A program made the position numbers and the translations under genes. Below, piece after piece: positions 8,657-36,300 of a stretch of DNA of 64,000 bases (its first letter is position 1; each line of letters starts with the position of its first letter). Source of the stretch: Lingula anatina (Eukaryota; Animalia; Brachiopoda). Under the pieces are notes generated by a model. It saw nothing but the letters and a program-made list of their open reading frames with translations, was not told the origin of the DNA and searched no databases. Where the stretch lies: positions 39,596,788 through 39,660,787 of the forward strand of contig CM120640.1 in assembly GCA_051362555.1 (NCBI GenBank). Direction: 5' to 3'.

Positions 8657-11600
8657 TCACAGTAAGTGGTGATAAAAGGGATTCACATCCAGAGAACACT
8701 CTGCACAAGGAAACTCTTTGATGAAAAATGGTTCATACCTATAATAAAGAAATATAAATGGATGTACATGTGATTAGCTATGATAAAAGGTTAATTAAAA
8801 TATATATTTTTAATGCCACCCAACCTCGGGTAAACTAGAAGATTACAACCTGTAACTGTCTGAAGCACATTACCACGAGGTTTAGATGCCCAAGGCCTGA
8901 CAGCTTTATTTTCAAACCACTGTTATCAAAAGCACATTAGCCATGATCTTCACTATTCACAAATGCTTGCTTTTAGAAATGCCCTTTCTATCATGTGGAT
9001 GCCAGGCTCCCATTATATTTGGTGTGATGTATACTGGGCAATTAAAAAAAGTATGTAAATGATCCCATCCTGTTTTCACTCACATCTTGACAAACTTATT
9101 TGAATAAATATCTGATAGCTTGTTTATGGGAGCATGAAGGTTGGCCAAGAAACCAAAGTGAACAAAGAGGCAGTCTGGTTGATTTGACTGATGAATTGAC
9201 TGGTTGATTGATTAACTGGGAAGACTATTTCACATTCCGTCATCGAAATCTGCAAGAACCTGAAGCTCAGGGTGGTACTGACTGAGAAATAAAAATAAGT
9301 TGTTATTGGTTGCCATATAAGACTGCAAAATTAAGTATCAGATCTAATTCACTGTCTTACATAATCCGCAATAGCACACCCGAGACATCTGCCAATATCT
9401 CACACAACCTGAACCACATAACATGTATACAACACCTACCAGAAATTAACTGCCAAATTCCTGTGATCCTGTTGTCCAGGAGACGACATGACTTCATGCC
9501 ACCAGTATGCAGGCATGAACAGAGCTTCTCCCTCATTTATAGTGCAGTTCATAGGGTAAGCATCTTAAATGAAAAAGATTTTGAATGTCAAAGTTAAAGG
9601 CACCATTGTGGATATGTATCAATATCACACTATCACATCTCAAGCACAACTAGCACACAAGCATATCTCTGTAACACAGCAAATTTAAACTAATATGCCA
9701 CAGCTACCACACACCATACTTGTCCCACCAAGCAAATTATCACATCTCTAACACAACTAGCATGCTCATGCAGCTTTGTCACACTTAACACACTATATCA
9801 AAACTCTACCATGCTCAGGTCATTTTCACAATTATGAAATATGCATACCTATCACGACACCAAATATTTGCCACACCTAGCACATCACAACATCTCTGAC
9901 ATTGCCCAGGAAACCACCACAACTCTGGCAAACTTGGCTCATACATCTGTATCACACTTTGTGCACAACTTATTTGTGTTACATTTAAGATATTCACATT
10001 GTTCCATCGCATCTATAACACTATTAGTACCACATTTGCACTGCACCTACTAGTAAATCATTTATCTGTCATAAGATGCATACTAGTATATATGCAAATA
10101 CTGTCCAGGAGCAAAATGTATTTGAGAACATTGTCTAATTTTTGATAAGGAAAACAATGCATTAAAATGTGATGTTATATGTGAAAGAAAAAAAGACAAT
10201 AAAACTGAATAATCTGGCATTCTTCTCTTTGACATCACTGGCAGTGAATCATAATGCAGTTGATCTACATTGTATAGTCACCTGCAAACTGGGGAAACCT
10301 CTGAAAGTCTGGATTACGAATGTCTACTGGTGACATAACCATTGAGGTGCTGTCCAAGAGGCCCTTTCTCAGAAACTGCTTTGTGGTTTTATTAAACTTC
10401 AGCAAAGCTTCTGGTATGTGGGCCTCGTAAAGGTTTGTGTTGTCATGGGGATCAAACAAAGTCACTTCCTTCTGACCACTTAACTACAAATGGAAAATGA
10501 AAATCACTGTGTTACACAATCCACAAAATACCCTAGTAATACTTCTTGTCGTAGTTTTTCTGTTGTTATGTAACTCAAGTTAACATTTTTTAATAACTCA
10601 TTTATTACATAACACATCCAGCCATGCTGGCTAACTGGTAGAGAGAGAACAATGCATTATGGGAGATATGTTAATTACATTATAATATGCAACATCTCCC
10701 TTTTTTTTAAATAAAAATAAATCCTGGAATTATTATTTTTTTTTTTAAAGTTGCTAATAAACATAATCAGTTCACTGTCCGTGTTGTCTTTGTCTCCAAG
10801 ACATTTCAATGTTCACAGTTCATAGGCACATGTAAATGTTTTTTTTTTTGTTTTTTGTTTTAACACAAAAGTCAACAGAATCTCAAGTCCAGAGTTCATA
10901 AATGAAACAATTATGATTAAGCTTATTCAAATTACAGTCAATTTTGTGACACTTTCACAACTGACTTGTTACAGTCACTATTACTGAATTTATTCATAAG
11001 TTCAGTCTCTCTGGAGGTTTAATGTTCCTGCTTGATCTGCGTAAGGGTTGAGATTGAGGTGTTTCACATTTTGTAACAGTCTCTGTGTTTGTAATGTCAA
11101 CAAGAGGTTCATCAGTTTCCTCAATCTCATTGTTTCTGAAATCAAAATGTTCTTTTGTCTTATGAATGTGTTTCCTGTTGCGTCGGTAAATTCCACCATT
11201 GGATTCCACATAATAAGATCTGGGTTTGTCTGATACAGTTTTAACTTTGGCAGGTTGCCATGTATTATTCTGAGTGTCATACATGCGAACAAATTCTCCT
11301 TCATGTAAAGGTGCAAGTGGTTGGGCATGCTGATCATAGTGGGTTTTACTTGCGTTCTGTCTCTTCTGTAATGCTACATTGTAGTCGGAGTTCAACTGTG
11401 ACTGTCCAGCGGGAATATTTGTTTTATACTTCCGGTTATTCAATAACTCACAAGGCGCTGGTAGGTTGTGATCAATGGGTGTTGTGCGAAGACATAACAT
11501 GGATAGGTGGGGATCTGAATTTGATTCCCATGCTTTCTGAAATAGACTTTTAACAGTCTGTACCATTCGTTCTATGAATCCATTTGACTGCGGATACATA

Positions 11601-14600
11601 GGTGAGGATGTAATGTGCGTAAATCCCCAAGTGTTTGCGAAGTTTTTGAATCCTTCTGATGAAAACTGAGGTCCATTGTCAGTTTTAAGAATCTCAGGGA
11701 TGCCATGTTCCTCGAATATGCTCTTTAAGTGTGCAATTACACTGCCTGATGATGTACTTGGAAGTTTCCTCACTAAAGGATATTTGCTGTACTGGTCAGC
11801 AACTAATAAGTAGTCAGTTTGTCTCCAATAGAACAAATCTGCTGCTAATGTGTGCCATGCGCGGGGAGGTACATCTGCTGGCAATAAGGGTTCCTTACTG
11901 TTGGCAGCTTGGTGTTTCTGGCAAGGTGGACACAGTCCGACTGTGTGCTCAATATCATTATTCATGCCAGGCCAGAATACAGACGATTTTGCACGTAGCT
12001 TACATTTCTCCACTCCCTGGTGGGCATAATGTAGCTGTTTAAGTAGGTCAGGGCGAAGTACTGTAGGAATAATCATCCTATTCCCCTTCATTATGATTCC
12101 ATCTGCGATGCCTAACTCATCACGGTAGTTCCAGTATGGGTGAAGAATTTCTGGACACTCGCTGCGTGTAGCTGGCCATCCTACAGAAATCATTTCACGA
12201 AGAGCTGCTAGCTGTGGTTCCTTACTGGTTTCCTCGCGAATTTGCTCAATGCGTGTTGGACTTGCGTTCATGTACGAGTGTAATTCATGTACTGTAATGT
12301 CAAGTCCTTTGATGTCATCACCATCACAAGGTTTCATGCGAGAGAGGGCATCAGCTAGTCCTATATTTTTGCCTGGGACATACACAATCTCTGTGTCATA
12401 ACACTGCGTTCTCAGCAACATGCGAGTCAGACGCGGTGGTGCGTTGTGTAGGTGCTTCTTGAAAATGGCTTCTAGAGGCTTATGGTCAGTCTCTACTTTA
12501 ACATGTCTACCATAGACATAATGGTGAAACTTTTCAAGACCAAACACTACTGCTAACATCTCGCGTTCAATGTTGGAGTAACGTGACTCTGTTTCTGTGA
12601 GTGCTTTGCTAGCATATGCAACTGGGCCTTTATCCTGGATTAAGGCAGCTCCTAATCCATAAGATGAAGCGTCAACTTGGAGTGTAAGTGACTTGCTACT
12701 GTCGTAGAATTGTAGGTTGGTTGCGTTTGCTATTTCTCTTTTAATCTCATTGAATGCAATACTGTGTTCAGCATTCCACTGAAAAACACTATCCTTCTTG
12801 CACAGGTCTCTGAGACTGGCTGTAAGTTGCGACATGTGGGGAATGTATCTGCTTAGATAATTGGTCATCCCAAGGAATGTTTGTAGCTCGGATACATTTC
12901 TCGGCTCATTCATTACATTAATGGCTTCTACCTTTGCTGGGTCTGGTTTTAGCCCGTCTTTTCCTATAATATGACCGAAGAATGGAATTTCCTCCTTTCT
13001 AAGAATCATCTTGTCTTCATTAAAGCGTATCCCCTTTCTTCTGGCTGTATCTAATACTACGCGCAGAGTCGCATCGTGGTCAGATCCGTCTTTCTGCCAA
13101 CCTGCTATGATGAGGTCGTCGGCGATTCCGGTACACCCTGGAATGTCTTTGAATACTTCTTCAATCTTGGCCTGGAAGACGTCTTGAGATAGCGAGAGGC
13201 CAAAGGGTAGTCTGTTGTATCTAAATCTTCCGAAGGGCGTATTGAAGGTAGTCAGAAGAGAACTTTCTTCATCTAACGTGATATTCCAATACCCACTCCG
13301 AAGGTCAAGTATACTGAAATAACGTGCGCCACTCAGTTGAGGTAGGATGTCATCCAGTGTTGGTGTGTAGTGGTGTGGACGTCTAATTGCCGTATTTAAG
13401 TCTTTTGGATCCAGGCAGAGACGTATTTTTCCATTGGGTTTGGTAACACATACACACGAGTTTACCCATTTCGTTGGTTGTGTGACTGGTGACAGGATCC
13501 CTTGCTCAACGAGAGAGTCCAACTCCTCCTTGAGTGCTGGCTGCAATGCAATAGGTACACGCCGTGGTGGGTGAACAACAGGAGAAACAGTGGGGTCGAT
13601 ATTTATGTGATATTCCCCATCCAATTTCCCGATACCTTCAAAGATATCCTTATACTCTGATAGTATGGACTGTCTTGTCACTGTATTTATGTTCAGAGTA
13701 ACAAGTCCCAGTTTCTGACTGGTTTCCATTCCTAGTATAACTGGTCCTTCACAGTCCACAATATAGCTGTCTGAGGTCACCATGACCTTGTCATTTGTGA
13801 ATGTCAATGTTGCTATTCCACATACTGGTAACTTACTGCCACCATATGCAGTAATCGTGTCATTTGTAGGCTTTAGTGGTTGCTGAATTGCAAGTTTTTT
13901 GAAAGAAGACAGTGGTATTACATTTCCCTCAGCACCAGTGTCTATTTTGCAACGTAATGTTGAAGTAGAGTTCCCAACTTTAACTTCAATGTCAGCAAAT
14001 GGCTTGACTGGGGACTGTTTTGACTGAATACTATCTACATATATAGAGTCAAAGCATACACTGCTACTGTCACTTTCATTTGCTACTGAATGCACAGTTT
14101 TACTATGGGTCGATGCAGTTACTGTTTTTGTTCTACATACCCTTTTCCAGTGATCTGGCTTGCCACATTTGAGACAAATTGTACCTTTAGCTGGGCACTG
14201 TTGAAAAACATGTTCAGTTCCACACTTACCACATTCTTGCAGTGGCTGTCGTGAGCGTTGCTTGCTTGGTACCTTTGATTGAGTTTGCTGGCGAGGAGTG
14301 CGATGTTGTGGCTGTCTGAAACGCGGTCTCCCTCTTTGACTGTTTCCACTTGGCCGTAGTGCATGAATTTCCTTTGCTGCTGTACTGTGAAGATCCTCAA
14401 TCTGTTTCTTAGTTGCTTCCTCTGTTCGTGCAATGACAAGAGCCTGATCTAGAGTCAAATCGTCCTCTCTTTGTAATAATTTCGCCTGAATTCGCTCTGA
14501 GTTAGTGCCGAAAATGAGAGTGTCAATTATGTGTTGATCAACATCGGTATATTTGCATTCATTTGCCACGAGTCTGATTCGTCTGACAAAAGAATCAATG

Positions 14601-16547
14601 CTCTCACCTGCTTCTTGTCTGCATGCTCTAAGTTTAAATCTCTGAATTCGAAAGTTACTCTTGGGCTTCGTGTATTCTTCCAATTTTTGCCAATACGAGG
14701 TCAACACGTCTGGATCATCAATGTTAAAAGTTTTCACAATTTCGCGGCCTTTTTCTCCGATCCAAAGGAGAAGAAATTTCACTTGTCTTTCCTCTGCTAC
14801 AGCATCTAAAGGTCCTTCAAATATCAATTCACACTTTTCCTTGAAAAGTTTGAACGTACGCGGTAAGTCCATGGATTCCCAGTCCATGTGAGGCGGCTGT
14901 ATCCCATACATGTGCTCCATTTTTTTTTCCTTTTTTTTTTTTAGTGATTCTAAATCCGTTTTTATCTTGTAGTTTGTGGGTCATCCAATCTCCAAATTAT
15001 GCTACATCCAATGTAGATCCCGATTCTGACACCATGTCGTAGTTTTTCTGTTGTTATGTAACTCAAGTTAACATTTTTTAATAACTCATTTATTACATAA
15101 CACATCCAGCCATGCTGGCTAACTGGTAGAGAGAGAACAATGCATTATGGGAGATATGTTAATTACATTATAATATGCAACACTTCTTAGGCCAGATAAC
15201 TGTCAAAAACAACAATGTTACCATTACAGTTAAGAAATATATTGCATTATAGTGATTAAATAATCAACTTTCTACATTTACCTGGAACAGTAAGTTGTCA
15301 AATGGATCAAAATGCAACCGTCCCAGAGTATAACCATCACTTAGCCAGATATTTAGGTGTCTTCTTTTCAGTAAGCCTTTGACAAACCCTGGTTCTTTTA
15401 TATCCTGCTCAAGGCTAGGGAAATACTGGGAAATAGAAGTGTATTCAAGATAGGCAGAATAGTTGCGGTGCTTCCCATGATTTTTGTCATTGGTTAGCAT
15501 CTCTAAAAAGTTTGAAAAATTTACATTCAGTGTGGCAGGTCTTACAACCACCAAATCTGGAAAGCGTAATTGTTTTTTAACATCTGTTGGTATGGTGAAT
15601 GTTTTGTGATCTTCCCATAATTCTGCCTTTTCCACACCTTCAAAGTCACCATTTGGAGTCAGTTTGACATGCACTTCTTCATGCAAATACCTTTCCTTAA
15701 AATAATCAGTCGTCCACTTTGAGAGCGCAGCCCAATCCTTCATAGTGCCCCTAATTATAACAGGTTTGGAACGCTTGACATACTCATGAAAGAATTCCTC
15801 TTTAGTAGGCATGTGGATTCTATCACAAACTGCTAAATGTTTATGTCTGGCTGCTGTCCCACTGGAAGATGCACATGTGTCCATCTGGCTAGCAACACAG
15901 TCATAATTCTCATCATCACCACGCCGTGTGTCATGCTGATCACTACCTTTGACCTTGGCCAGCCAGCTCTGATATCTCAACAGTAATGGGTTTGGCTGAC
16001 TATTGAACAAAGAGGACATACTGGCAATATTTTCTGAGGAATGCACCACGTGAAAGAGATTTTGAAGAATGTCTAACCTGTGTAATCCCTCCACTGACAC
16101 ATGCCCCGATTCAGTTCTGAAAGAATCGCAGACATTATTGACAAATTGCACCAGGGATGACAGTGTCACAGGTCCGCTGTAAACTTCTGCCTCTGGGGTC
16201 CACATATTCGCAGGAGCGGGCAGTAGACATGTACGATCGTTTTTTCTCTTCCGAAATGCAATAAAATGCGTGTTGTTGTTAGGTCTTTTATTCGCCCACT
16301 TAATTTTCCTATTAAAAGGCCACGCTAATCCTTGAATATCCAATGATCCAAATGTCACGTTTTCCTCTTTAAAAATGCCCTCTAATTCTTCCAAGATTTT
16401 AGATGTTGAGGGGACTTTGGTCACAGCGGCGACGACACAGGATGTTTCCACTGCATGCAAAATATCATCGGATTTTAAATTATGTACACATTGAGAGAAT
16501 TTTACCAGTAAAATGCACATTGTGATGTATAGAGTCCATATTCCCAT
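8657..16547 (-). CDS. JmjC (cupin_8, JMJD7/HSPBAP1/TYW5-like) Fe(II)/2-oxoglutarate oxygenase with an N-terminal signal-peptide-like segment
   Basis: Exons 16547-15282, 10483-10282, 9563-9440 and 8738-8657 join in frame. Motifs KPVIIRG..DWAALSKWT, NIWLSDG.TLGRLHFDPFDNLLFQLSGQKEVTLF, GEALFMPAYWWHEV, NLAVNFWY give an intact HxD...H triad and the 2OG-binding Lys. Confidence 0.9.
10547..15182 (-). mobile_element. Full-length Ty3/Gypsy LTR retrotransposon (Mag-like) in intron 1 of the JmjC gene
   Basis: 148-bp LTRs (10547-10694 and 15035-15182, TG...CA) that appear identical. 5-bp TSD CTTCT (10542-10546, 15183-15187). PBS TGGTGTCAGAATCGGGAT (15034-15017), similar to a tRNA-Leu 3' end. Polypurine tract at 10695-10708. 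Confidence 0.97.
10994..14920 (-). CDS. Gag-Pol polyprotein (1308 aa, single ORF)
   Basis: Two CCHC knuckles (CGKCGTEHVFQQC, CLKCGKPDHWKRVC), protease IDTGA, RT LPFGL...IADD, RNase H VDASSYG..ERE..TDHKPL, integrase HHCC and D-D-E (ADLF, TDNG, IERM). Domain order is PR-RT-RH-IN. Confidence 0.97.
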   Translation of the reverse strand: MEHMYGIQPPHMDWESMDLPRTFKLFKEKCELIFEGPLDAVAEERQVKFLLLWIGEKGREIVKTFNIDDPDVLTSYWQKLEEYTKPKSNFRIQRFKLRACRQEAGESIDSFVRRIRLVANECKYTDVDQHIIDTLIFGTNSERIQAKLLQREDDLTLDQALVIARTEEATKKQIEDLHSTAAKEIHALRPSGNSQRGRPRFRQPQHRTPRQQTQSKVPSKQRSRQPLQECGKCGTEHVFQQCPAKGTICLKCGKPDHWKRVCRTKTVTASTHSKTVHSVANESDSSSVCFDSIYVDSIQSKQSPVKPFADIEVKVGNSTSTLRCKIDTGAEGNVIPLSSFKKLAIQQPLKPTNDTITAYGGSKLPVCGIATLTFTNDKVMVTSDSYIVDCEGPVILGMETSQKLGLVTLNINTVTRQSILSEYKDIFEGIGKLDGEYHINIDPTVSPVVHPPRRVPIALQPALKEELDSLVEQGILSPVTQPTKWVNSCVCVTKPNGKIRLCLDPKDLNTAIRRPHHYTPTLDDILPQLSGARYFSILDLRSGYWNITLDEESSLLTTFNTPFGRFRYNRLPFGLSLSQDVFQAKIEEVFKDIPGCTGIADDLIIAGWQKDGSDHDATLRVVLDTARRKGIRFNEDKMILRKEEIPFFGHIIGKDGLKPDPAKVEAINVMNEPRNVSELQTFLGMTNYLSRYIPHMSQLTASLRDLCKKDSVFQWNAEHSIAFNEIKREIANATNLQFYDSSKSLTLQVDASSYGLGAALIQDKGPVAYASKALTETESRYSNIEREMLAVVFGLEKFHHYVYGRHVKVETDHKPLEAIFKKHLHNAPPRLTRMLLRTQCYDTEIVYVPGKNIGLADALSRMKPCDGDDIKGLDITVHELHSYMNASPTRIEQIREETSKEPQLAALREMISVGWPATRSECPEILHPYWNYRDELGIADGIIMKGNRMIIPTVLRPDLLKQLHYAHQGVEKCKLRAKSSVFWPGMNNDIEHTVGLCPPCQKHQAANSKEPLLPADVPPRAWHTLAADLFYWRQTDYLLVADQYSKYPLVRKLPSTSSGSVIAHLKSIFEEHGIPEILKTDNGPQFSSEGFKNFANTWGFTHITSSPMYPQSNGFIERMVQTVKSLFQKAWESNSDPHLSMLCLRTTPIDHNLPAPCELLNNRKYKTNIPAGQSQLNSDYNVALQKRQNASKTHYDQHAQPLAPLHEGEFVRMYDTQNNTWQPAKVKTVSDKPRSYYVESNGGIYRRNRKHIHKTKEHFDFRNNEIEETDEPLVDITNTETVTKCETPQSQPLRRSSRNIKPPERLNL

Positions 16548-16929
16548 CCTCGGCAGTCATTTAGTATAAGACTTACATAGAGGGATTACGTGTCCAAATG
16601 CTAGAGGATTTTCATTCTGTTGTTGATGCCCTGGTTGATTATAGGTGTCAGGACGACCAGACAAGCTAATCACTTTCCTTTTCTTATTAAAATTTTTGAC
16701 TGGTTATAAGTCAAATTTTCCAGCAATGGACGTTATTTATATACACAAACAATTTGAAAATCTTTAAGATAGTACTGAAAGTTCAGGTAGAATTGACATT
16801 CCACGAGACTTAAAATTATTAGATTCATTGTATTGAAGATAAGCCCCACCTATAGTTCTTAATCCTACCAAAACAGAGAGAGATGACAGCAAACCTAGAA
16901 ATTATATTTTGAAACGGAGTTTATCAGCC
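16548..16929. promoter_or_regulatory. Probable bidirectional promoter between the JmjC gene and WDR45
   Basis: Divergent start codons only 382 bp apart (16547 on -, 16930 on +). Confidence 0.55.
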
Positions 16930-17193
16930 ATGTCCAGCAGGGGAGTGAATAACCTGCGATTTAATCAAGATCATGGTATTTAATATTTAATGTTTCATAA
17001 TGTGATGTAATAATCTTCTTGAATACAATGTTTATGTACTACATGCAGTTCCTACATTTTACCTGTAGTTTTTATTTCCTGAATATACACTGTAATTATT
17101 AATAATTTTCGTATGTTGTGCAAGAAAACAAACGAAATACTTGCCCAAATAATGGTAATAATTGTCAATTGAAATAGTCCAATGTGATATGTT

Positions 17194-17256
<63 letters not shown>

Positions 17257-20200
17257 TTTTATTTAGCAGTATTTATTTTATATACTCACCTGGCAGCCAG
17301 AAAATATTCAGTCCCATTTAACATTTTTAAAGCCTAAGGCCTGTTTGTGATCTTTTTGGTATGATATTGTTCCTTTATTAATTTATCTAGATATTAATAT
17401 GTGGTGTTTCCCACTTAACCATGGAAATGACCCTTTGATTACATTTAATTATAGGTAAATGAAAAAAGGAAATGTGTTTGAAGTTAATTTTTTCTTTTTA
17501 ATATAGGCTGTTTTTCATGTGCAATGGAATCAGGTGTGCGGATCTACAATGTTGACCCCTTAGCAGAGAAACTCAGGCTTGGTATTTATACAAATTTCTT
17601 TCTTGTATTTAGATCTCTGTTTGTATTTCCAAGCACTATAAAACTTTTGAGCACTGCAACATTTGTAAGAAAAAGTTCTTTTTAGTATCTTTTGCTGTCT
17701 AGATTCTATAGAATAGATTGATACTGTAAGGTGATTGAAAACACTGTTTAATGTGATTTGTTTTACAGGCATTGAGTCAGTAGGTAGTGTGAGTCAAGTG
17801 GAAATGCTTCAAAGAACCAACCTCCTGGCAGTTGTTGGTGGAGGAGCAATGCCAAAATTTGCAGAAAATGCAGGTATAAATACTGGTATTAATCATTTAA
17901 AAAGGAACAATAATAAATTGTCTTTATTTTTGGTTTTACTCTTTGGTGTGAGTCTATGTGGTTTTAGTTGATCTGAAATGTTCAAATATATTTTGTGGTT
18001 TCGTAACAGGAATAATATTTCGTAGCAGGAATGATTTTGTTGTAAGCTACAAAATATACAATTGGAATGAAAACATATATACATTTTAGGTGTTAAATTT
18101 GGTAAAAGGTGGCTTGTGAATATATTTTGCAGTTCTGTTGTTGGATGATTCTCAGAGAGATATGCAGAAGAAGCTAGTAATGGAAATCACAGTATCCCAG
18201 CCGGTGCTTGGTGTCAGACTATGGAGAAAAAGAGAAGTTGAACAGAAGTCCTTTATCAGGTAATGTTGTCCATGATGGGAGTGCAAGGACAGTAAAAATT
18301 AGCATTAATGATTAATTGAAAAGGTTTATACCAAACTGAAGGAATCAAAAATAAGAAAGGGGTTGCTAAATTGGGTTTAAAGGATAGTTAGATAATAGTA
18401 TGTTTTAATAATTTTTGAAATCCCATTTGGAGTATGATGAAAATTCTTTATGTGATCTACAAATTGAAGTATATGGTTAGCAAGTGGTGTGTTCTGTAGA
18501 AAGTTAATTTTGTTACAAGTAATCTGACTTAAATTCAGCTTAATAGTGGTGCTACGGAACCAGATTTGTGTGTTTGGCATATACTCAGATGATCCTCAGA
18601 GTGCAAAGCATTTGGTGACTTTGGACACAAGGGATAATCCTAAAGGTGAGTTAACATATGATACCTGAATGTCAAAATGTTTTTGCCTAAATTTGGTGAG
18701 ATATTGTAGAACAGACTGTTTAAATAAGAGCAGACACAAAATGTCAAAAGTAATTGTCCTGGTTTATTAAACCCTTTTACAGCCTGTTTGATCTCCAGAT
18801 TTAATCGGTGCTCTTTCATGATAGGTTTATGTGAAGTCAGCCCAGCCTCTGACAGGCCTATTTTGGCATACCTTGGACACAAGCGAGGCAGCTTGCAGCT
18901 GTTGGTGAGTGACTATTCACTATGATAAAATGAATATATGTTCTGTGACAGTCAAAACAATCTGGTAGTGGTTTTATGACCATTTAAAATGATAGAAAAA
19001 GCAGTAATCCTTCATTCATTTTCTTTTGGTTTTGTGAATATTTTTTTACCAGAAGCTGTAGCATATTAGTGCTATGCCTATTGTTTGTTTTGTAGGATTT
19101 GTCTAAGGCGTGTGCTCAGCCCAATATGTCTATGTCTCCAGTGACCATCAATGCACATCAGAATGAACTGGCCTGTCTGGCCATTAACCAGGATGGAACC
19201 ATGGTGGCAACAGCTTCAACCAAGGTGACAAATCAGCTCACTTTTACCCTCCTCAAAATACACATGTTAAAGCCCACATGAGTGTGTGCATGCATGTGTG
19301 CAAGCGTGCACACACTAGTTGCATTTTATTTTAGTTTTCATATACTGAACATAGGGAAGTTTCTTCAAATATACCATGTATATTTTTTTCAGATATAATT
19401 TAAGAACTTTGATCACAAAATTTCTTTGAATGTAGTAATTCCTTGTCTCATTCATTTTAGGGTACCTTAATCCGCATCTTTGATACAGTAAACAAAAAAC
19501 AGTTAATTGAGTTGCGCAGAGGTGCTGACCCAGCCACACTGTACTGGTGAGAAATTGTAACATATGGGTATACATGTATAATCACCTTCCACAACAGTTT
19601 CACCTTATTCAGAATCAAAATCTCAAGAATGTAAATATTTTTAAAGAAAAAGTCATAATTGTGAATACTTACTCAGAAGATGTACATGTATTATATATCA
19701 TAATTGTGGAAATGATTACAGTTATATTTTTTAAACTGACTTGACTCATTAAAGATGTATTTTTGATTCAGCATCACCTTCAGTCCAGATTCCTCTTTTC
19801 TGTGTGTGTCCAGTGACAAGGGAACTGTTCACATATTTGCTGTTAAAGATGAAAAGCTGAACAAACGATCCACGTAAGTAAAGATGTCCCACGTGAATTG
19901 TGAAACTTGAATTGTTTTTTGCAATTTTTTTATGATAATGATCAATAAAGTTCTTACAGTCAACAGTCAGTAAATATTGTCAAAAAAGAAAAGCAGGATT
20001 GGACCACATAATAATTTTGACCTTTATTTTATATTAAGGATTCCAAAACAGTCCAATATTATATTGTGCTATTTTTCAGATTTCAAAAAATGAATTTCCT
20101 TGGTCAAATTGGCCAGTATGTGGAGTCCCAGTGGGGTCTGGCTAGCTTCACTGTGGCAGCAGAATGTGCTTGTATCTGTGCATTTGGACCACACAGCTCA

Positions 20201-20471
20201 GTGATTGGTAAGACCCATAACTTGATTGGATTATAAGTTTTGCCTAAGAACTATGGATTCTAACATAAGTTTTCTGTAAGGAAATGTCTTCAGACCAGAA
20301 TTTTTTAACGTCAAACCTCCACCTTTTTCACATGCACAGTTAATTAATTTTTTTATTCTAGCTGTGTGTGTTGATGGTTCCTTCCACAAGTATGTGTTTA
20401 CACCTGATGGAAATTGTAACAGGGAGGCCTATGATGTCTACTTGGACCTAGGAGATGATTTAGAGTTTTGA
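16930..20471 (+). CDS. WDR45: WD repeat domain phosphoinositide-interacting protein 4 (autophagy PROPPIN)
   Basis: About 11 GT-AG exons (approx. 16930-16975, 17508-17581, 17770-17873, 18133-18259, 18539-18645, 18825-18904, 19097-19223, 19461-19546, 19773-19874, 20080-20207, 20362-20471). Peptides [62 protein letters not shown] and [25 protein letters not shown] match WDR45, including the LRRG motif. Confidence 0.95.
17193..17259. repeat. (TTTA)n microsatellite
   Basis: Tandem ttta run in WDR45 intron 1. Confidence 0.95.
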
Positions 20472-22453
20472 GGATATGTGAATATGTACTACTAATATAT
20501 GTAGGTCATATATTTTAAGTGAAATATACAAGTTAAGGAAAGATATGTGTAGGCTCACTGGTGAGACCCTACAAGTTATATCATCATACTTACCAACTTA
20601 TTGGTGCTATCAGAAATGGATTTAGACAAGTATTTAATGTAACAGTTGTGAATATGAGTCTGAAATGAAAATAGTTTCATCCCATAGGATGTTGCTTGGA
20701 GTTTTGACTGTGTGGGCTTTACCTAGAGTCAACATTGGTATAGACTTGAATATACATGTATCAATATTGCAAACATGATGCATGTTTTTATGATTAAGTA
20801 AGATGCCATTAATGCAATAGAACTATACCATTTTTATCTACATGTAATAGCTACATCAGTCTTCCACACACCACAAGGAGACAAAATATGTATAATAGAA
20901 ATTGAAATTGTGGAAGATAAAAGACAAAATGTGCATTTGTTGAAATTGCATTTTTGTGAAGTTCTGTTTATTTCAAGTTAAAATTTTAACAATAATTGGA
21001 TATCCTATGGTACTGTATTTTGCAACTGGCTGTGATTGTAGATGTTAAGCAGCTAGTAGTGAACATACCCTGGGGGTAAACCATTTGATTAATTTGGTCT
21101 AAATCGAAAATGGCAGTATTCATAACAACACACTAGTATATTTTAAAGACATTTGAGATCTTTATTTAATTTGACAAAATGAAAAATCGTGTATTTATTG
21201 TCCTGTATGTACAGTTAATAAATGAAGATATTTTTCAGAACCATGTTTTTTAGTATAAATTGTGTTGCTGACTGAACACTGAAATGAAAATTAATAAACA
21301 AAAAAGATGAATAAAGATTAATATAACAGTTGCCAACAAAACCACGTTGATCAAGAACTGTGGCATGCTCATTGTAATTAAGAGAATTTGCAAGTTTTTA
21401 GATGATATTGATGTCATCTACAATAATCTTGGTTTCAAACTCAAAATACAAGTACCTCTTAGATATGAGTTCATTTGATTGATCACTTTAATCAACATGC
21501 CTTAATTATACCAAGCTAATGATTACATGCATTCTTTGCATTTACACATCATGTAAAATGTTTTTTTAGCAGGGGCGATTATTATATTAATAAAATGAAT
21601 GTAGCATACGTTTATGACATCTGTACAGGCTACCCTAAACTAAGTTTAAAAGAGGAATATTTGTACTACAAAAAACCAATGAAATATGGCAGTCTCTTCA
21701 GACTCAAACATCACGCAGAAATTACAAATCATCATGTGGATGCGTGTTTTTTTGCCTATTTAATAATTTAATAACCTTCATTTTCTTTTCATTATTTTAG
21801 TATATATTTGGCATAATATATAATTGTATAATGCACAACAGTTTGCAATATTTCCCCCAAATTGTGCAACATTGTGCTAGTTGTGCGCTCTAAATCCTCA
21901 TATGTGACAGTAGGAAAATGCATCAGTTGAGACGATGGTGAAAGAGCCGAGAGAGAAGGTAAACATTACAGAACTCGTGTTTTCCTGGTGATATGAATTA
22001 GGTGGACAAGAGGTATACTGTTGGAGATAATACCTGTGTGACAGCCGAGCGTGTACAGAAACTTTGATATCGATATATATATATATGTAATACTGTTATA
22101 TATGTAATACTGTTATATGATAGTACAGAGACTATACTGCTATATTTCAGCGCAGTCATCGACGGCTTATAAGGTAAGACAATTACATGTGACATACATA
22201 TATTGTTTCATATAGATTTACGTGTAGTTGTTATTGCTGAATATTGGTGTAACTATTACTGGGGGTTGATCATGAATCGGCGATATAAATTGCAAAGTAT
22301 ATAGATGACGGGATGAATCAATAGTCTGATAGAAAAGGTGTGCCCAACTGATATTTACCACAATACTGCATGTACAGTCAGGTATTTTACATAATTGTTT
22401 CAGTATGCTTAGATCTAGTAATATTGATTCTTTAATTTATTCCAGTTATCACT

Positions 22454-25063
22454 ATGAAGACCAGGTGGTTTGTTGCCAAGTGTCGCAACTTTTCATCTCT
22501 GGAGTCCAGTTTATCTTCTGGTATCTGGGGATGCAGAGAAAGGCAGTCCTCTCCTCAGCCAGCAGAGACCTTAAGTCAAGCCATGGAGGGAGGGAGAGTT
22601 GTCCTACTCTTCAGTGTTAATAACCAACATGGTTGGCATGGAGCTGCTGTTATGGAAACAGAGCCCGTTGTTATGGAAACAGCACCAACTGTCACAGAGA
22701 AGTCACCTGTGGCAAAGCAAATGCCAGCAGTTTGTTGCACTAAGAACCAGATTCCCGTAAAAACTCCTCACCTCAATGGTGACTGCAGTAATTTTGTAAG
22801 AGGAGACAGTTACAGATGGTATCAGTTCAAAGTGAAATGGCTAACAGAATTTCAGGGAGAGTTTAAAGAACAATGTCTTCCATTTTCTGCCACAAAAGAA
22901 TTGGTGCTACTAGACAACACTCCAATAAATAAAGCAAGAAATTTTCAAGAATTGAATGAACACTCTGGCAGAACCTTGTATGAACTTCTGGTCCAGCATT
23001 ATAACAAATTGTGCAGAGACCGTGAGGAGAAATTAAAGAAAGAGGAAGAGCAGATTCCAACCCCATTTTTCCACCCCAGGGAATCCAGGGATATGCAGGA
23101 AGTGTGGCTGCGCATTCTTGAAAAGGTTAAAAATTTGGGAAAAGTATTGCTTGCTTGTGCATTTGGAAGTCAAAGGTGAGCACAAATATAATATAGATAG
23201 GTGATAAAAGAATAGGGTTTCACATAATTTTATTTGGCATGTCTTTCAATATGCAAATATTTAATATGCAAATATTCTGAAAACAAATGAAATTTACTTA
23301 ATTAAAACCAAATTTGACCCTGAAATATTATTTCATAAACTCTACTGTCTGTGTACTTTATTCAAGCAAAGCAATCACCCACTTGATAGATATTCTTGAT
23401 AATTAAATGCTTAATTTGTCTAATTACAGGTACAATTTGCACACCGCTGAAAGTGATACAGACATGTTCATAATTTATGCTGCCAGTGCAAAAGATGTGC
23501 TGGGATTTAACCCACCAAAACAGACAATAAAAGTAAAAAAACTTACTAAATATTATGATTAAAGAATGTTTTGATGATTTTTTAAAAAATGTGCTATGAA
23601 ATTTCATACCTGTATTTTTTAAAGATTTTTAAGAATTATTTTTCAAGTATTTTGTCCATCAGTAATACATGCTTAACATTAGATTTAAGTAAGATGATGA
23701 TTTAATTAGCACATCTTTAAAAAGTTCATCACCACAGTATTATGGTTTGTACAGTCATTCATACATAAATCTTGTCTTACTATAAAAGTTCAAGAAGTCA
23801 TTGCTTATATTTCAGAACCGTGATACAGAAACCTGTGACTATACAATCCATGAGGTTTTCCGTTACTGTGAGTTACTATTGGGGGGAGACCCTCGCTGTG
23901 TAGAAACTCTCTTCCTTCATCCCAGCTGTGTGTACTATGCAGCAGAGGAATGGCAGGGGCTCTGTCAATATGGAAAGTTATTTTTGACTAAGTATGTCGA
24001 GCATTCATTTTATTGGCTCTTTAAAAAACCTAAGATTTTGGCTTTCAGTGACATTGCTAAATAACATAATTTTGACACATTCTGTCGTGCTCATGTTTGT
24101 AACATTTATATGTAATAATTTTTTTTCACAGTTGCACAAGGTTTTGATTTTTTGTCAGTTGGTCTGGTTGAAATGAGGGGAACTTTAGCGTCTAAATATA
24201 ATTGAAGTAATAGTTGCAATAAGAATTGAATATTTTATTTATAGCATATATTTTACTCTTACAGACAATGCTTAGAAAAATACTTAGGTGATGCTACAGG
24301 GTCTCGAGGACTGAAGCAATTGGAAAAATGGTGGAATCGACAGACAGATGGTGCTGAACTGTTGCCTGTTCATATCAGAAAACTGTTTTACATTGTGATA
24401 AGATTATTGCAAAATGCAAGGTAAAAAAAAGACCCATACAAATTTTTTGATCACCATATTAAGACTTTAATTTAGATAAATTTAAAGAATTTAATAAGTC
24501 ACATTTACTTGAGGTGAGGAGTTACAGGGAGTGTCACCTTGTTTTAAGGGATGTTTCCAGTGGTGAAGGAATTGTAGTGTACAGACCTCAGCATTCTCCA
24601 GGGAGGAAGCTGCTGATGGAGACAAGGCAGGGAAAATACTCATACAAGTATCTTAAAGAAATAATAGATGGGTAAGAATTTATGAGATGGATTTTATATG
24701 ATCAGATGATAATGGTTAGTACCACTAATTCCTTTTTACTTTTGTGTAGTTGTACAATTAAGTGACTTATTACTTATTTTGTATTAGATGTGAATTAGAT
24801 TATATATATATCTTTTACTTTTTTCAAGTTTGATGAATTCTATATTTTACAGCAGAAAATTACATTAGTTTACTTTTTTGATATCATATTTCAGATTATT
24901 GCAAGAAATAGAAGCTAACAAAACAACTAGATTGTTGCCTGAGCAGCCTCCTAAGCAAAAACTGGAGGAATGGTTATTGGAACTCAGATACAATAGCCTA
25001 CTGGCCCTCAAGGAAAGCAAAGATGTTATAGGGCAGAGTCCAGACATAGATGATAAGGAGTAA
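22454..25063 (+). CDS. YTH-like domain fused to a DNA polymerase beta-superfamily nucleotidyltransferase (RlaP/YcgL, PF10127-like); about 482 aa
   Basis: Exons 22454-23175, 23430-23532, 23816-23991, 24265-24420, 24549-24671 and 24895-25063 total 1449 nt and stay in frame. The N-terminus aligns by eye to YTH (RWFVAKC..GIW..VVLLFSVN..GWHG..FKVKW..LPF..PINKARNFQEL). The C-terminal half has FGSQRYNLHTAESDTDMFIIY, CDYTIHEVFRYCELLLGGDPRCVETLF and KLFYIVIRLLQNA. Confidence 0.85.
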
Positions 25064-25687
25064 CCTTGGCATGTGCAATGTACCTTGTTTTGGAATTGGT
25101 AGCACAAATTTTAAGGAGGATGTGTGTAGTTTTATTTGTAAATTGTTTTTTTGTATTATCTAGGATGGTTGAAAATTATGATAAAAACCAATTGTTATTA
25201 TCTCTGTCCTACTCTTTGTGACAAAATATATCCCCACACTCCTACCTTAGCCTGTAATATTTGTAAGGAAAGATCGTCACCAAATAAACACCTTTTTAAA
25301 AAAAATAATTTGGAAATGGAATGATGTCCCTGAAATTATTTACGCGACATGGGACTAACCTATACTGAGACAGCACTCTTCACTTTTTAGGTATTCCATG
25401 AAACATCACATAATAAACCAGATTGCATCTTTAAAATGAAGTTTTATTTTTGTCCATGATAAAAAATGAAATTACAAATGATAAATGAATGAAATATATA
25501 TACAGCGATGGTGGTGTGCAGATGATGTTGATGGCTCATTTTAATGTTATGCTGTGTAAAATGATCTATATCTCAATATGTGAAAATCTTACATAATTCC
25601 CATTTCTTTGGAAGCCAATCTTAATAAAGTTCTGTACACTGACACAATTATTGTCATTGACTGTGCCTGAATAATGGACTACAGCAC

Positions 25688-27575
25688 TTATACTATGACC
25701 ACCTCTTCACCTCCAATATGATTGTATTCAGTCTTGTACATTTTAGGAGCAGTAAATGTAGATTTAGGTCCAGGCTCTGGTAGAACATAAGGAGTGTCTA
25801 CAGGGCAGAAGAAAATGTCTCTAAGCTTGACATCAGAGGGTGTTACATAAGAGTCCTGTTGCAGAGACTTGAGACCACTATGAGGGACAGGCAGCATAGC
25901 ATTGGGTTGACGTGGAATCTTTGTCTTGAATTTAAACCAAGTTGGGTCACGCATTGGAAGATTTTCTCTTGGTACTGTGTCTTTTGGCACAGGGCTGGAA
26001 AATCAATAAAAAACATATAAATCAATATGCATTATACACATTATACACAGATATACATGAACACCTTAATGTTAAGCACTGTATGTAAACTTCAACATTT
26101 TTCATGGATCATATTTGGCAGATTTGTTACATCTGTTATGGAGGGTTGATGTTTCTTGGATTAGTGCAATAGTAACTGATTAAACGTGTTGATTATAAGC
26201 AGTTTCATATACTCACTTGTGTTTTTGCCCATGCCCCCATGCCTTGGGGTACTCCTCACACTCCCAGTATGTTGTTGCATCTTTTCTTGGATAGCCATCC
26301 AACTCGTGTCTGGAGAAAGCCCTGTGGTCTTTGTTGGTTGTGGTCAAGTAGGTGTCGTCCAGTCTGAGTACACCCTTGTCTTTGGGGTAGAAGACCATTC
26401 CCTTGATCTTCTCATTCAGAGTGGATGGAACCATTTTCTGTAATAAAATGGAGATTTTTTAATTACTGCTTTTATTTGATCTGCTGGTGACTCAGAAAGT
26501 GAAAACTCATACTTGAGAATTTCTTTATTTGAAAAACAAGAAAAATTGCAGAAATTAAATATATAGGGGCTTACTTAAATACCTCAAGGTACCACCTTAA
26601 ATGGCATATTTCCAATAATCAATACAAAACCTTACTCCTTAGTCTACAGTTGCCAATAAACAAAATAATATCATACCAAGTACTGTATAATCTTTGGCTA
26701 GCATCTTCTATAAATATATATATTGGTAACTGTCATGAAAAAATGTGGCATATAATCTAGTAAAAAATTATTCTATTTACCTTTGATGGTCCTTCATTGT
26801 GATGATTAAGTAAATTGAATGGCTGTGGATTTGGTGTGAATTCTTGAGTGCCTACATTTAAACCTCGCTTGTTGTCAAATTGGTCCTGTTGCTCTGTTTT
26901 CTGGTTGCCCATTGTCAAAGGCTTCCTCCAACTTCCCTTACCAAGCTGGAAATAGAAAAAAAAAATTACCTATATAATACACAAAAATCACAATACACAT
27001 ATACTTCCCCGCAATATCTACACAATTATTTGTAAAATGGTACATGCATGTGCTTAACTTTTTTTTCTTTTGAAAAAAAGTAGACATACAAAAGCAAGAA
27101 TAATACAATGTAACAATTAAGAATTTTATTTACCTTTTCAATGTGGTCTTTCACATATCCAACTTTCCAGTGACCTGGCGCTTTTTTATGAATGGGGTTG
27201 GAATAAACGCCATCAAGGTATTTCTTGTAATGAAAATGTCCGGTTGTTGTTTCGAATCTCCGTGTATTTGTTATTTCATCTTGTTTGGCAAGGCTTGGTG
27301 GCATCGGCTCATTCAGAACAGGCTGGAATACAATATAAATATATATAGATACTTCTGGAATATATTATTACAGACCATTACAGTTACCGAATTGCACTGC
27401 TCACCGAGTTACTCGTTTAACAGTCAAATTGTATTTTATTACCATGTTATTTTAAAATTAGATTTTTTAATATGTGAATTACCTGATAATTTGAACTTGG
27501 GAAGTAATACCCTGGCCTATAATCATGGCCAACGCCTGTACTGGTGTGGTGCAGATCTTGACGCCTTGCCTCCAT
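25688..27575 (-). CDS. Uncharacterised 324-aa protein, probably a ciliary/sperm axonemal microtubule-inner-protein-like product
   Basis: Exons 27575-27483, 27322-27134, 26945-26781, 26437-26217 and 25994-25688 total 975 nt in frame (MEARRQDLHHTSTGVGHDY...GGEEVVIV*). The protein is Pro/Tyr/His-rich with short FETTT/YLTTT/YKTEY motifs, and an X-box-like site lies upstream. The gene model is solid; the function is inferred. Confidence 0.7.
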
Positions 27576-27598
27576 CGTGACTTGTGAGTGAATGTTTG

Positions 27599-27613
27599 GT
27601 TGTCATGTGTAAC
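27599..27613. promoter_or_regulatory. RFX X-box-like motif upstream of the putative ciliary gene
   Basis: GTTGTC-ATG-TGTAAC lies about 24 bp upstream of the ATG at 27575 and resembles GTNRCC-N(0-3)-RGYAAC. Confidence 0.4.
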
Positions 27614-33340: not shown

Positions 33341-36300
33341 TACTACACCCAGAGGCAGCAACAGGTGTCTGAGGATAGTGCCGGTCCCATCAGTGCAGTG
33401 CCAAATCAAACCTTCACACAGGAAGCAACGAGGTAAGAGAGACAAGCACAATCATCCAAGGTTGGCAAACCAAACACTAGCACTACAGATCACTACTCAA
33501 TCAGAACGATCAGAATGCAAAGCCAGCAGTTTATAAGGTGTTCATTAAAATACTTCTCCCCCTACCCATTCTCCCATAAAGATGTTGAAATAATAAATTT
33601 TCAAACAAACAATGCACCTATAAATCTAAAAATAAAAACATCTGGTGGTAGAACCACTCATTTCAGGGGAATCTTTTGAAGTTCTCTCCCAAGTTTTGAT
33701 TTGGCACCCCCTGACTCTCAGCCCATGTTCATCTTACAACCCTTTCCATTTAGTGTTGTCAACTCTGTGCCCAATATAGCTCTGTGCAAAGGTGGTCAAA
33801 CTGATCTCCCTTCAGAGGCAAACCATACCCCAATTGTATCTGTATCTTTTTTATTCTAATAAATGTTTATTGTCAACCATTGAAGACCACACATATCTTG
33901 GCAGCATTTTGCAAGCTATCAGAAAATTTAAAAAATTAAACGAGACTTACCTTGGTTAAGTCGAAGTTTGATTTCAATTCTTTGAGTAAAGAATTGAGGG
34001 AGGGCTTAACTGAGATCCGGTTGCGCGCGCAGGGCACTTTTCAAAGTGTTTGTCACATTAACCACATGGAATTAATTACATTAATTCCCCACAGCTCTCT
34101 TCCTCTATAATACAAGCAATGAGCTGTAACCCAAAGTTGGGTGGGAGGGTGGCAGTTAAGCCCTCCCTCAATTCTTTACTCAAAGAATTGAAATCAAACT
34201 TCGACTTAACCAAGGTAAGTCTCGTTTAATTTTTTAAATTCTTTTTCGTAAGAAGAATTTCGTTGGTCTTAACTGAGACTTTAAAGCTTGATGTGACAAA
34301 CATTTCATTCATTTCAAAAGATTCTTTATTTACCCAGAACTCCATCCTGGAATCTGTCTTGATTACTTACAATGCGCTTGTCATAGAACTTCGCAAAAGT
34401 ACTTTTCTTAGACCAACCAGCTTTGTCAATAATGACTGATATAGGTACTGCAGAGGCTTTTGCCTTAGAGGTAGCTGCAGCTCTAACACCGTGAGAGCTA
34501 AATGTATAAGTGTCTATACCAGCTCTACTCATAACAGTTTTTATCCATCTTGCTACTGTGTCTCTTGCGACATTATGATGTGGTTTCATGTAACTTATTA
34601 ACAAACGTGCACAGTTCTTGTCATTTCTCATGACTTTTGTGCGAAACAAATATTCCTTCAATACAGTATACACACAAAGCCTCCTGTCTGGAGGGTAGGC
34701 CTTAAAAGATACTGAAACAACATTATAACCTGGCCTATTTTGTTTTAAAGAACCATCTAACTTGAACAAAAACTCAGTTCTCAATTTTTTATAACCTTGA
34801 AAACTTAACAACTGCAAAGTTTGTGTACGTGCAGCTTGAGTCAGAGCCATGAGCATCACTAGCTTTAATGTCAAATCTTTGAGAGTTATATGCTTAACAG
34901 GAGAAAGTTTCCTCAAATATGTCAATACTCTTTCAACATCCCACACCTCTGTGTATCTGGGTTGTGATGGTCTGGCTGCAAACACACCCTTCATGTATCT
35001 GATAATTAATGGGTGATTTCCAATTCTGAATCCATCAAAGTTTATTCCTAAAGCTGAGAGAGCTCCACGTGCAGTGTTCAAACTCTCATAACCCAAACCT
35101 TTATTGAATTGTTCAGTTAAAAACTCGATTACTGCTTCCAAAGTTGGCGAAAGTGGAGTAATCGTCCTTTTACTACAGTACTGAAACCACCTGTTAATGT
35201 GTGTGTTATATTGTTTTTGTGTCCCTGTTTTCCAAGACAACATAAGTATTTTGGTAGAGTCCTCTGAAAATCCTCGTTCTCTGAAACTATTCCTGACACT
35301 TTGCAAGCAATCAGTCTTAATTTCCCTTCCAAAGGGTGTTTCAACTGCAGGTGAGGAAGTCTTAAAAGATTATTCTTTTTCTGTATTATGACTGGTTTCT
35401 CCACCAACAATTCCATCAGTCTCGGAAACCATGCTTGTGTGGGCCACATTGGTGCTACAATGATTCCCTTGGCTCTGTCCTGTCTGACTTTCTGCACACA
35501 GTTTCCCAGTAAGCTAAAAGGTGGAAACAAATAAACTGAGTTAAAAGTTTCCCAGTCAATGGTAAAAGCATCAACAAAAGAGCAGTTTGGATCAGGCTTC
35601 CATGAACAATATGTTTCTACTTGAGCATTTATTCTAGATGCAAAGCAGTCTATATCTGGGATTCCCCAAAAATTACATATCTTATGAAAAATCTTGCTGT
35701 CTAATTTCCATTCAAGATCATCCTTGAATTCTCTGGAAGCCTTATCTGCTGCCTCATTATTTTTGCCAGCTATATATGTACATGTTAACCAGACATCATG
35801 TGATATACACCAAATCCATATGTCACATGCTACTTTATTACAGTTTTCAGAAACTGTGCCTCCCATGTTGTTAATGTACGACACTGCCGTAGTGTTATCT
35901 GACATCACCTTAATATGCTTTGACTTAAGATCACGTTTGAGGGACTTGAGTGCATTCAAAATGGCCATTAATTCTAATACATTAATAGGCAATTTACCCT
36001 CTACATCCGTCCATCTACCTCCAAAATTATTGTTTTTATAACTTGCACCCCAACCTAAAGTGGATGCGTCTGTATGTAAAGTCTCTGAGGGGTTTGGTCT
36101 AGCAATAACCCTATGCTGGGATTTCAAGTTGACAATCCACCAAATTAAATCTGACCTCATACTGTTTGATATTATCATGGGTGCATCATAGTTACCCTTC
36201 GATTCTTGTAAAGCCTTAATCTTTGCTCTTTCTAACTTCCTATAGTACAGTTTGCCATAATCCACAGCTGAAAAACTTGCTACTAACAACCCAATGACTC

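Follow-up and report, generated by a model that had tools for sequence, protein, structure and literature searches.

A spliced and expressed gene of Lingula anatina, located in the window (the whole stretch of 64,000 nucleotides analysed here), encodes a protein that profiles assign to both PF04146 (YTH) and PF10127 (RlaP). This YTH-RlaP fusion recurs in other animals and in protists, its animal YTH pocket appears to be conserved but rebuilt, and the protein is probably an RNA 3'-end nucleotidyltransferase (NTase) in which the YTH domain would select RNA and which would act on cleaved ends for repair or clearance.

The six canonical exons described for this gene in a preliminary description were confirmed (Table 1). 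When joined, they give 1449 nt encoding 482 aa with no internal stop codon, and all introns of the gene are GT-AG. Each of the five coding junctions, for which an RNA-seq check had been suggested, was seen in RNA reads, with 11, 12, 17, 10 and 11 junction reads for introns 1-5 (summed over four runs), and introns 1-4 were confirmed again in another set of runs. The reads came from seven of the nine listed runs, which carry the same species label and possibly derive from a different individual. Read depth was zero in bins that are fully intronic, and first mates lay on the minus strand, as expected for plus-strand RNA in stranded libraries. An in-frame acceptor at 24528 for exon 5 was ruled out, the reads taking 24549. 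Intron 1 cuts inside the Arg241 codon and splits the catalytic motif (FGSQR/YNLHTAESDTD) as had been proposed, and the downstream motifs CDYTIHE, LLGGDPRCVETLF and KLFYIVIRLL are present in the translation.

The leader exon was checked for an ATG and contains none; it is joined to exon 1 by a junction (22173/22446) covered by six reads, whose acceptor lies 8 nt upstream of the ATG. RNA reads were additionally found over about 21900-22080, upstream of the leader exon, and coverage of the 3' UTR continues past the stop codon to about 25150-25250. Because of the leader splice and of a RefSeq isoform of the sister Lingula locus that is extended by 10 N-terminal residues, the start codon may be isoform-dependent. 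The RefSeq protein XP_013380011.1 (Lingula anatina, 'uncharacterized protein LOC106151338') differs from the spliced product at 6 of 482 residues. Two RefSeq Lingula loci carry this gene (LOC106173084 and LOC106151338; P0001 and P0006), about 96% alike, which could be a recent duplication or one locus whose alleles were assembled separately; a 7-residue repeat in the YTH loop is missing from P0001, and RefSeq places WIPI4/WDR45 on the same contig as LOC106151338. Among the 23 listed read variants in the CDS, which may mix alleles and the sister locus, 12 are silent, where chance would give 20.9% (p 9e-4), and catalytic residues are untouched by all 23.

Table 1 Features of the YTH-RlaP gene and its surroundings, numbered from the first letter of the window
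Feature	Position	Strand	Content or basis
5' leader exon	22151..22173	+	3' boundary from reads; 5' boundary from AG at 22149-22150
Coding exon 1, ATG 22454, aa 1-241	22446..23175 (coding 22454-23175)	+	Whole YTH domain, linker helix, NTase start to FGSQ-R
YTH domain, aa 3-179	22460..22990	+	PF04146; fold match to YTHDC2 YTH
W25	22526-22528	+	First cage Trp by alignment
Hypervariable loop, about aa 68-118, no Trp	22655..22807	+	Low pLDDT; animal-row comparison
W122	22817-22819	+	F-3 Trp of the animal family
Long predicted helix, aa 169-199 (31 residues), YTH to NTase	22958..23050	+	AlphaFold model
Intron 1, phase 2, within GS-x-YN-x-SDxD motif	23176..23429	+	11 junction reads
Coding exon 2, aa 241-275	23430..23532	+	Catalytic D250 (23455-23457), D252 (23461-23463)
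Coding exon 3, aa 276-334	23816..23991	+	Third Asp D283 (23837-23839), E288, GD300P, E305
Coding exon 4, aa 334-386	24265..24420	+	Family mark KYxxD343AxGxxG; helical-domain KxxYxxxR380L
Coding exon 5, aa 386-427	24549..24671	+	Helical domain with R412; junction reads
Coding exon 6, aa 427-482 and stop	24895..25063	+	C-terminal helix with W453, R458
Retrotransposon ORF, 1328 aa, open	10994-14980	-	RT, RNase H, integrase
Cupin_8 (JmjC-like) protein exons	15264-16556	-	
WIPI4/WDR45 gene	16930-20471	+	Directly upstream; spliced, expressed
Convergent spliced gene	about 25340-27600	-	Four read-backed junctions
Overlapping ORFs with RT	34326-38281	-	Candidate DIRS-like element
Importin-beta family protein exon(s)	49326-49688	-	
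F-box protein exon(s)	55157-55612	+	

Exon 1 alone matched Pfam YTH over aa 3-179 (E 1.3e-14, 54.5 bits against a cut-off of 22.1), and the helix predicted at aa 169-199 agrees with the earlier view that this exon holds a complete YTH domain, a linker helix and the start of the NTase. Exons 2-6, each scanned singly against Pfam, gave no match. The RlaP family, reportedly defined by Burroughs and Aravind in 2016, was scored on P0001, a RefSeq relative 95.9% identical to the spliced product (E 7.5e-14, 52.5 bits, cut-off 23), so that the expected pair of Pfam families was found on the Lingula exon itself for YTH and on this near-identical relative for RlaP. The relatives P0003 and P0004 scored 53.3 and 56.3 bits against the same RlaP cut-off, and the match spans positions 18-169 of the 249-position model. 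P0006 matched the phage nucleotidyltransferase family PHROG 388 (E 7.9e-30), which together with the ESM Atlas upholds the statement that the nearest unfused relatives are largely from phages and bacteria. NCBIfam gave no match among the fused proteins and neither did PADLOC, which returned nothing for 7 of the 8 proteins scanned.

Structure prediction with AlphaFold and Foldseek, likewise suggested beforehand, gave confident YTH and Pol-beta NTase folds. The full-length model has a mean pLDDT of 87.7 and a pTM of 0.72, with aa 79-117 below 50 and disordered. The best fold match of the YTH part is YTHDC2 (Z 19.2, rmsd 1.6, 125 aligned), followed by AtCPSF30 and then Toxoplasma CPSF4 (Z 17.4). 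Folded alone, the NTase part (pLDDT 95.4, pTM 0.91) comprises an NTase core, a helical domain and a last helix; its top solved fold is HalB (Foldseek E 2.9e-5; Z 8.6, rmsd 5.2, 176 aligned). Two unrelated NTases score within 1 Z of it, and a Z near 8 can reflect a common arrangement. This ranking says little on function because PDB sequence and fold searches returned no RlaP structure. The order of elements in the NTase model, compared by description, agrees with the verbal layout of PfRlaP in the accessible part of a preprint (10.64898/2025.12.29.696909).

The survey of this architecture across metazoans found both Pfam families in 35 of the 40 relatives returned by a non-exhaustive word search. 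Species names are attached to 32 of these 40: apart from 28 that we take to be molluscs, they are Lingula, Owenia (an annelid), Lineus (a nemertean) and Corticium (a sponge). When 1.84 billion representatives were searched with a profile, 3857 matched; 20 of the 150 matches listed were given names. Family profiles built for this analysis detected both domains in at least nine named protists (Spironema, Platysulcus, Tripos, Arcella, Copromyxa, Flabellula, Stenamoeba, Pelomyxa and Balamuthia), and five of the nine pass both Pfam models too, at E 1e-4. EukProt supplies seven of these nine records, most of them derived from transcriptomes and open to contamination; the other two, Pelomyxa and Balamuthia, come from NCBI, on contigs of 29 kb and 246 kb. 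In Mastigamoeba and in Macrostomum, a flatworm, the family NTase was found but no YTH part was detected, and several amoebae and Platysulcus carry one or two extra NTase copies, often degenerate. No vertebrate, arthropod, nematode, cnidarian or echinoderm was present among the named relatives listed from the word and profile searches, and losses in these groups are likely. The gene is 37-46% conserved, and each named animal seems to have one copy or two. A further homologue search, in which part of the candidates were scored, added no taxa; most of its 24 rows were already known. No relative was confirmed when the full alignment was run against viral_contigs or a single standalone relative against genome_contigs, scans that pick up close relatives only, and none of 50,697 phage records matched exon 1.

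The ESM Atlas contains a 74-member cluster labelled with both families, and the YTH-RlaP architecture is already labelled automatically in databases. No description of the fusion was found in the literature searched, which included few subscription papers; the architecture may have been described elsewhere. A search of passages in PMC4738411, PMC7641849, PMC2794190, PMC13629450, PMC10826363, PMC7824862 and PMC6514570 brought up no YTH-RlaP fusion.

The history of the fusion was addressed with an NTase tree of 117 domains (LG+G4, 249 columns), from which 35 near-redundant rows and rows with a match under 150 aa or starting late were left out. A single clade of 55 rows (99/94) takes in all 33 rows with a detected YTH domain, and the remaining 62 rows include no N-terminal YTH-linked copy; since the 'fused family' label was set partly from a sequence motif, this YTH count, not the label, serves as the test. 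The sister of this clade (100/98) comprises four standalone NTases, among them that of the protist Lapot, and 17 named phage, bacterial and archaeal rows fall outside it, in a tree where prokaryote sampling is thin and many other rows are probably prokaryotic. A clade of 21 animal rows with the 17 named prokaryote and phage rows, a group chosen after the tree was seen, was rejected (p-AU 0.0027), as was, within the sampled rows, direct phage-to-animal transfer. Creation of the animal gene by transfer into animals, which had been raised in the preliminary description, is not supported, given the presence of the same fusion in nine named protists that form a single clade with animals. Because protist and animal rows group in this way, the fusion appears to predate animals or to have moved among eukaryotes and not to have come straight from phage into animals. 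A prokaryote- or virus-type RlaP would have given rise to the fusion a single time, early in eukaryote history, or the fusion would have spread from one eukaryote to another; many losses would have followed, and introns would have been gained later. Among 78 animal-type proteins, 27 end right after GSxR (the Lingula intron 1 site) and six right after TIK (the intron 2 site); since such breaks read as unspliced gene calls, they imply that the intron positions are shared.

Some placements in the tree deserve separate mention. The Spironema sequence (P0048), which keeps a loop Trp, groups with animal sequences at 100/99, apart from other protists, and this could be transfer, contamination or noise. 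Macrostomum forms a long branch of unresolved placement. For P0050 (Platysulcus) and P0105, the first NTase copy lies inside the YTH-linked clade and the last copy outside it, suggesting that two RlaP lineages are joined within one protein. P0084, P0112, P0117, P0139 and others form a separate clade of 500-700 aa proteins with two tandem RlaP domains and no YTH.

The catalytic aspartates D250, D252 and D283 are invariant in 55/55 rows of the YTH-linked clade, as are G238, S239, Y242, S249 and E305, and the Tyr residues Y242, Y340 and Y376 are near invariant. D300 is found in 53 of the 55 rows, where other RlaPs mostly have Asn, and D/E343 with a Gly-rich insert is found in all 55, where other RlaPs have an aromatic residue. 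Because the clade departs from other RlaPs at these cleft positions, its acceptor or nucleotide may differ. According to the accessible part of the preprint (10.64898/2025.12.29.696909), two Pseudomonas RlaPs (PfRlaP and PaRlaP) add one or two NMPs onto RNA 3'-OH, label neither 3'-phosphate, DNA nor E. coli protein, prefer the nicked end of a tRNA mimic and Mn2+, and use any NTP or dATP, dATP being accepted by PfRlaP; that part mentions eukaryotic RlaPs only as few and names no fusion.

It is from this addition of 1-2 nucleotides to RNA 3'-OH by bacterial RlaPs that we draw our favoured reading of YTH-RlaP as an RNA 3'-end nucleotidyltransferase, which we consider to have a better than even chance. 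Speaking for it are also the splicing and expression of the gene, the recurrence of both Pfam families among relatives, the invariant Asp triad, the excess of silent variants, the layout of the NTase model, the repair-gene neighbours of two prokaryote relatives and the precedent of Mmi1. Speaking against it are the cleft differences from other RlaPs, the low identity to phage relatives, HalB as best solved fold, the absence of a ligase or repair gene beside the Lingula gene and of an annotated one at 14 of 16 prokaryote loci. By analogy with the bacterial enzymes, it would transfer NMP from NTP to RNA 3'-OH by two-metal catalysis in short additions and would prefer nicked tRNA-like ends. The YTH domain, held by the helix at aa 169-199, would pick the substrate in a pocket rebuilt from W25, an R/K-x-x-x-(Q/H)P insert and W122, and the purpose would be to restore or mark cleaved RNA ends, tRNA first, leading to religation or clearance. 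By the same analogy, a tRNA substrate class and a repair or decay purpose seem most likely. Nucleotidylation of either RNA ends or a protein had been envisaged; a protein acceptor is less likely because the two bacterial RlaPs examined in the accessible part of the same preprint put label on RNA and on neither E. coli protein nor DNA.

Genomic context was also compared. Repair-gene neighbours were found at 2 of the 16 annotated-region prokaryote loci used in the tree: the relative in Gordonia phage Bantam lies two genes from an RNA ligase, and that in Deinococcus lies between Hen1 and Pnkp. The short flanks of the other 14 hold no annotated repair gene, two of them being without any annotation. 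Identity to named phage relatives is 23-35%, over parts. An RNA ligase or repair gene was looked for beside the Lingula gene and none was seen, its neighbours being WIPI4 and an unnamed gene; animal genes are not arranged in operons.

The YTH pocket bears on what the protein could recognize. W428 and W377 of YTHDC1, with L439, grip the m6A methyl group, according to the accessible part of PMC6112328. W25 of the Lingula protein aligns with the GxW Trp of solved readers, that is, the first cage Trp (YTHDC1 W377), and R162 is kept as the match to YTHDC1 R475. The second cage Trp (YTHDC1 W428 type) is missing: 37 animal rows were given and 35 parsed, with loops of 23-207 aa, and 0/35 loops have a Trp outside the last four residues; two canonical YTH comparators have it at F-14 relative to the FxVxW Phe. 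The W428 position was placed on the loop via the AtCPSF30 alignment and the YTHDC1 residue order rather than by superposition. F-4, the canonical third cage position (W, Y or L), is aromatic in 0/35 animal rows, and F-3 is aromatic in 35/35 and Trp in 32. W122 is this F-3 Trp, three residues before FxVxW and one residue off the canonical third position. The N367 and D476 positions are Ser and Asn in the family, and a five-residue insert follows W25. The m6A reading previously attributed to the YTH part is accordingly weakened, the YTH fold and W25 being present; with the second cage Trp gone from 35/35 animal loops it becomes doubtful. By this cage test the Lingula protein does not appear to be a canonical m6A reader, canonical m6A reading by animal members is unlikely on sequence grounds, and another ligand for the animal pocket is plausible. 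Because some protist rows (Spironema and three Tripos-group rows) retain the loop Trp, the ancestral YTH-RlaP protein may have been able to read m6A.

Extending the favoured reading, the remodelled pocket could read a modified base beside a cut, either m6A or a modification of the tRNA anticodon loop, and RlaP could restore the missing nucleotide. Molluscs, worms, sponges and amoebae would then possess a phage-style repair arm against ribotoxins or their own immune nucleases, an arm that was not found in vertebrates, insects or nematodes. We put this forward as a tentative possibility. If true, it would make YTH-RlaP a fourth animal YTH class and a reader-writer of ancient eukaryotic origin.

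Unlikely, in our judgement, is a true m6A reader-writer, which would bind m6A in a rearranged cage of W25, W122 and a neighbouring aromatic residue and would tail methylated RNA for decay or processing. The YTH fold is closest to YTHDC2 and AtCPSF30, W25, R162 and the F-3 aromatic residue are kept, and the loop Trp survives in the protists named above; however, the W428-type Trp has no counterpart in any of the animal loops, the Lingula loop is predicted to be disordered, W122 is displaced by one residue, and the Ser/Asn replacements and the insert also depart from the m6A pattern.

Rather less probable still is a signal or guard enzyme like HalB or cGAS-type NTases, in which RNA sensed by the YTH domain would make the enzyme produce a short oligonucleotide, either free or self-primed, in innate defence. 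HalB, whose Tyr-primed poly-dA product serves a partner channel (review PMC13434031), is the top solved match of the NTase part in both fold searches, but it shares only 13-14% identity at an rmsd of 5.2, is tied with two unrelated NTases, and is missed by the family profile in sequence at E 10. The near-invariant Tyr residues and, from the accessible part of the preprint, the acceptance of dATP by PfRlaP would fit such an enzyme. A patchy distribution with repeated losses suits conflict genes, as do the additional NTase copies of amoebae and Platysulcus, but no fused protein has a PADLOC match, and the degree of conservation and the low copy number per animal would be unlike those of fast-changing immune sensors.

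Also improbable is a protein or small-molecule nucleotidyltransferase (AMPylase-like) whose YTH domain would serve only RNA localisation or partner binding. The next folds are aminoglycoside NTases, glutamine synthetase adenylyltransferase and another protein AMPylase, and the cleft residues are unlike those of other RlaPs; against this, sequence profiles assign the protein to RlaP and not to those families, the accessible preprint text reports proteins unlabelled by the tested RlaPs, and fusion to an RNA-binding fold points to RNA. An annotation artefact or two separate genes is scarcely credible: no single short read spans the whole CDS, but exon 1 by itself carries the YTH domain and the beginning of the NTase motif, at least 10 reads support each junction, and the fusion recurs in dozens of species.

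Tailing of RNA 3' ends by a Pol-beta NTase with an RNA-binding module is familiar from TUT4/7, GLD-2 and the TENT family. An RNA 3'-end nucleotidyltransferase of the YTH-RlaP type would work similarly, but its NTase lineage differs, and the fold matches to GLD-2 (Foldseek E 0.046) and trypanosome TUT4 (E 0.057) are weak. With the RlaP family (PF10127; PfRlaP and PaRlaP; phage NrdC.11-type, PHROG 388) the Lingula protein shares a Pol-beta core, GS-x-Y-x-SDxD, a third Asp and a C-terminal helical domain, whereas its gene is eukaryotic, intron-bearing, fused to YTH and without an adjoining ligase gene. With canonical YTH readers (YTHDF1-3, YTHDC1, YTHDC2, plant and apicomplexan CPSF30-L/CPSF4, yeast Pho92) it shares the fold (Z 16-19), the first cage Trp and the R475-type Arg; in contrast, animal YTH-RlaP proteins lack the second cage Trp and have an insert after the first Trp and a long variable loop. 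Moreover, YTHDF, YTHDC1, YTHDC2 and CPSF30-L carry a C-terminal YTH domain after low-complexity, helicase or zinc-finger parts, whereas here an N-terminal YTH domain is combined with RlaP only. The accessible part of PMC6112328 describes no human YTH reader with an NTase domain and presents Mmi1 as a YTH fold that does not read m6A, its second Trp being kept and the position blocked. Fission yeast Mmi1 thus resembles YTH-RlaP in its fold (Z 16.9) and in a pocket off the m6A pattern, but has no enzyme domain, and the second Trp that it retains is gone in animal YTH-RlaP.

Inventories of animal m6A readers name YTHDF, YTHDC1 and YTHDC2 (e.g. PMC13629450, accessible part). Alongside these, YTH-RlaP appears to form one more conserved YTH class, one equipped with an enzyme of its own; calling it an m6A reader from the Pfam label is likely wrong. 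It would be a natural example of a YTH pocket rebuilt for another ligand and would add a eukaryotic member to an RNA-repair family studied in two bacterial enzymes. Since it occurs in oysters, mussels, scallops, abalone and Aplysia, established animals could be used for tests.

Several other features were recorded in the window (Table 1). Five overlapping ORF pieces of the convergent gene gave no Pfam match, nor did a candidate recombinase ORF among the overlapping RT-containing ORFs at 1e-5. From tyrosine recombinase and gag-like motifs we take these overlapping ORFs to be a DIRS-like element, and the 1328-aa retrotransposon ORF is, by its domain order, presumably of the Ty3/gypsy type.
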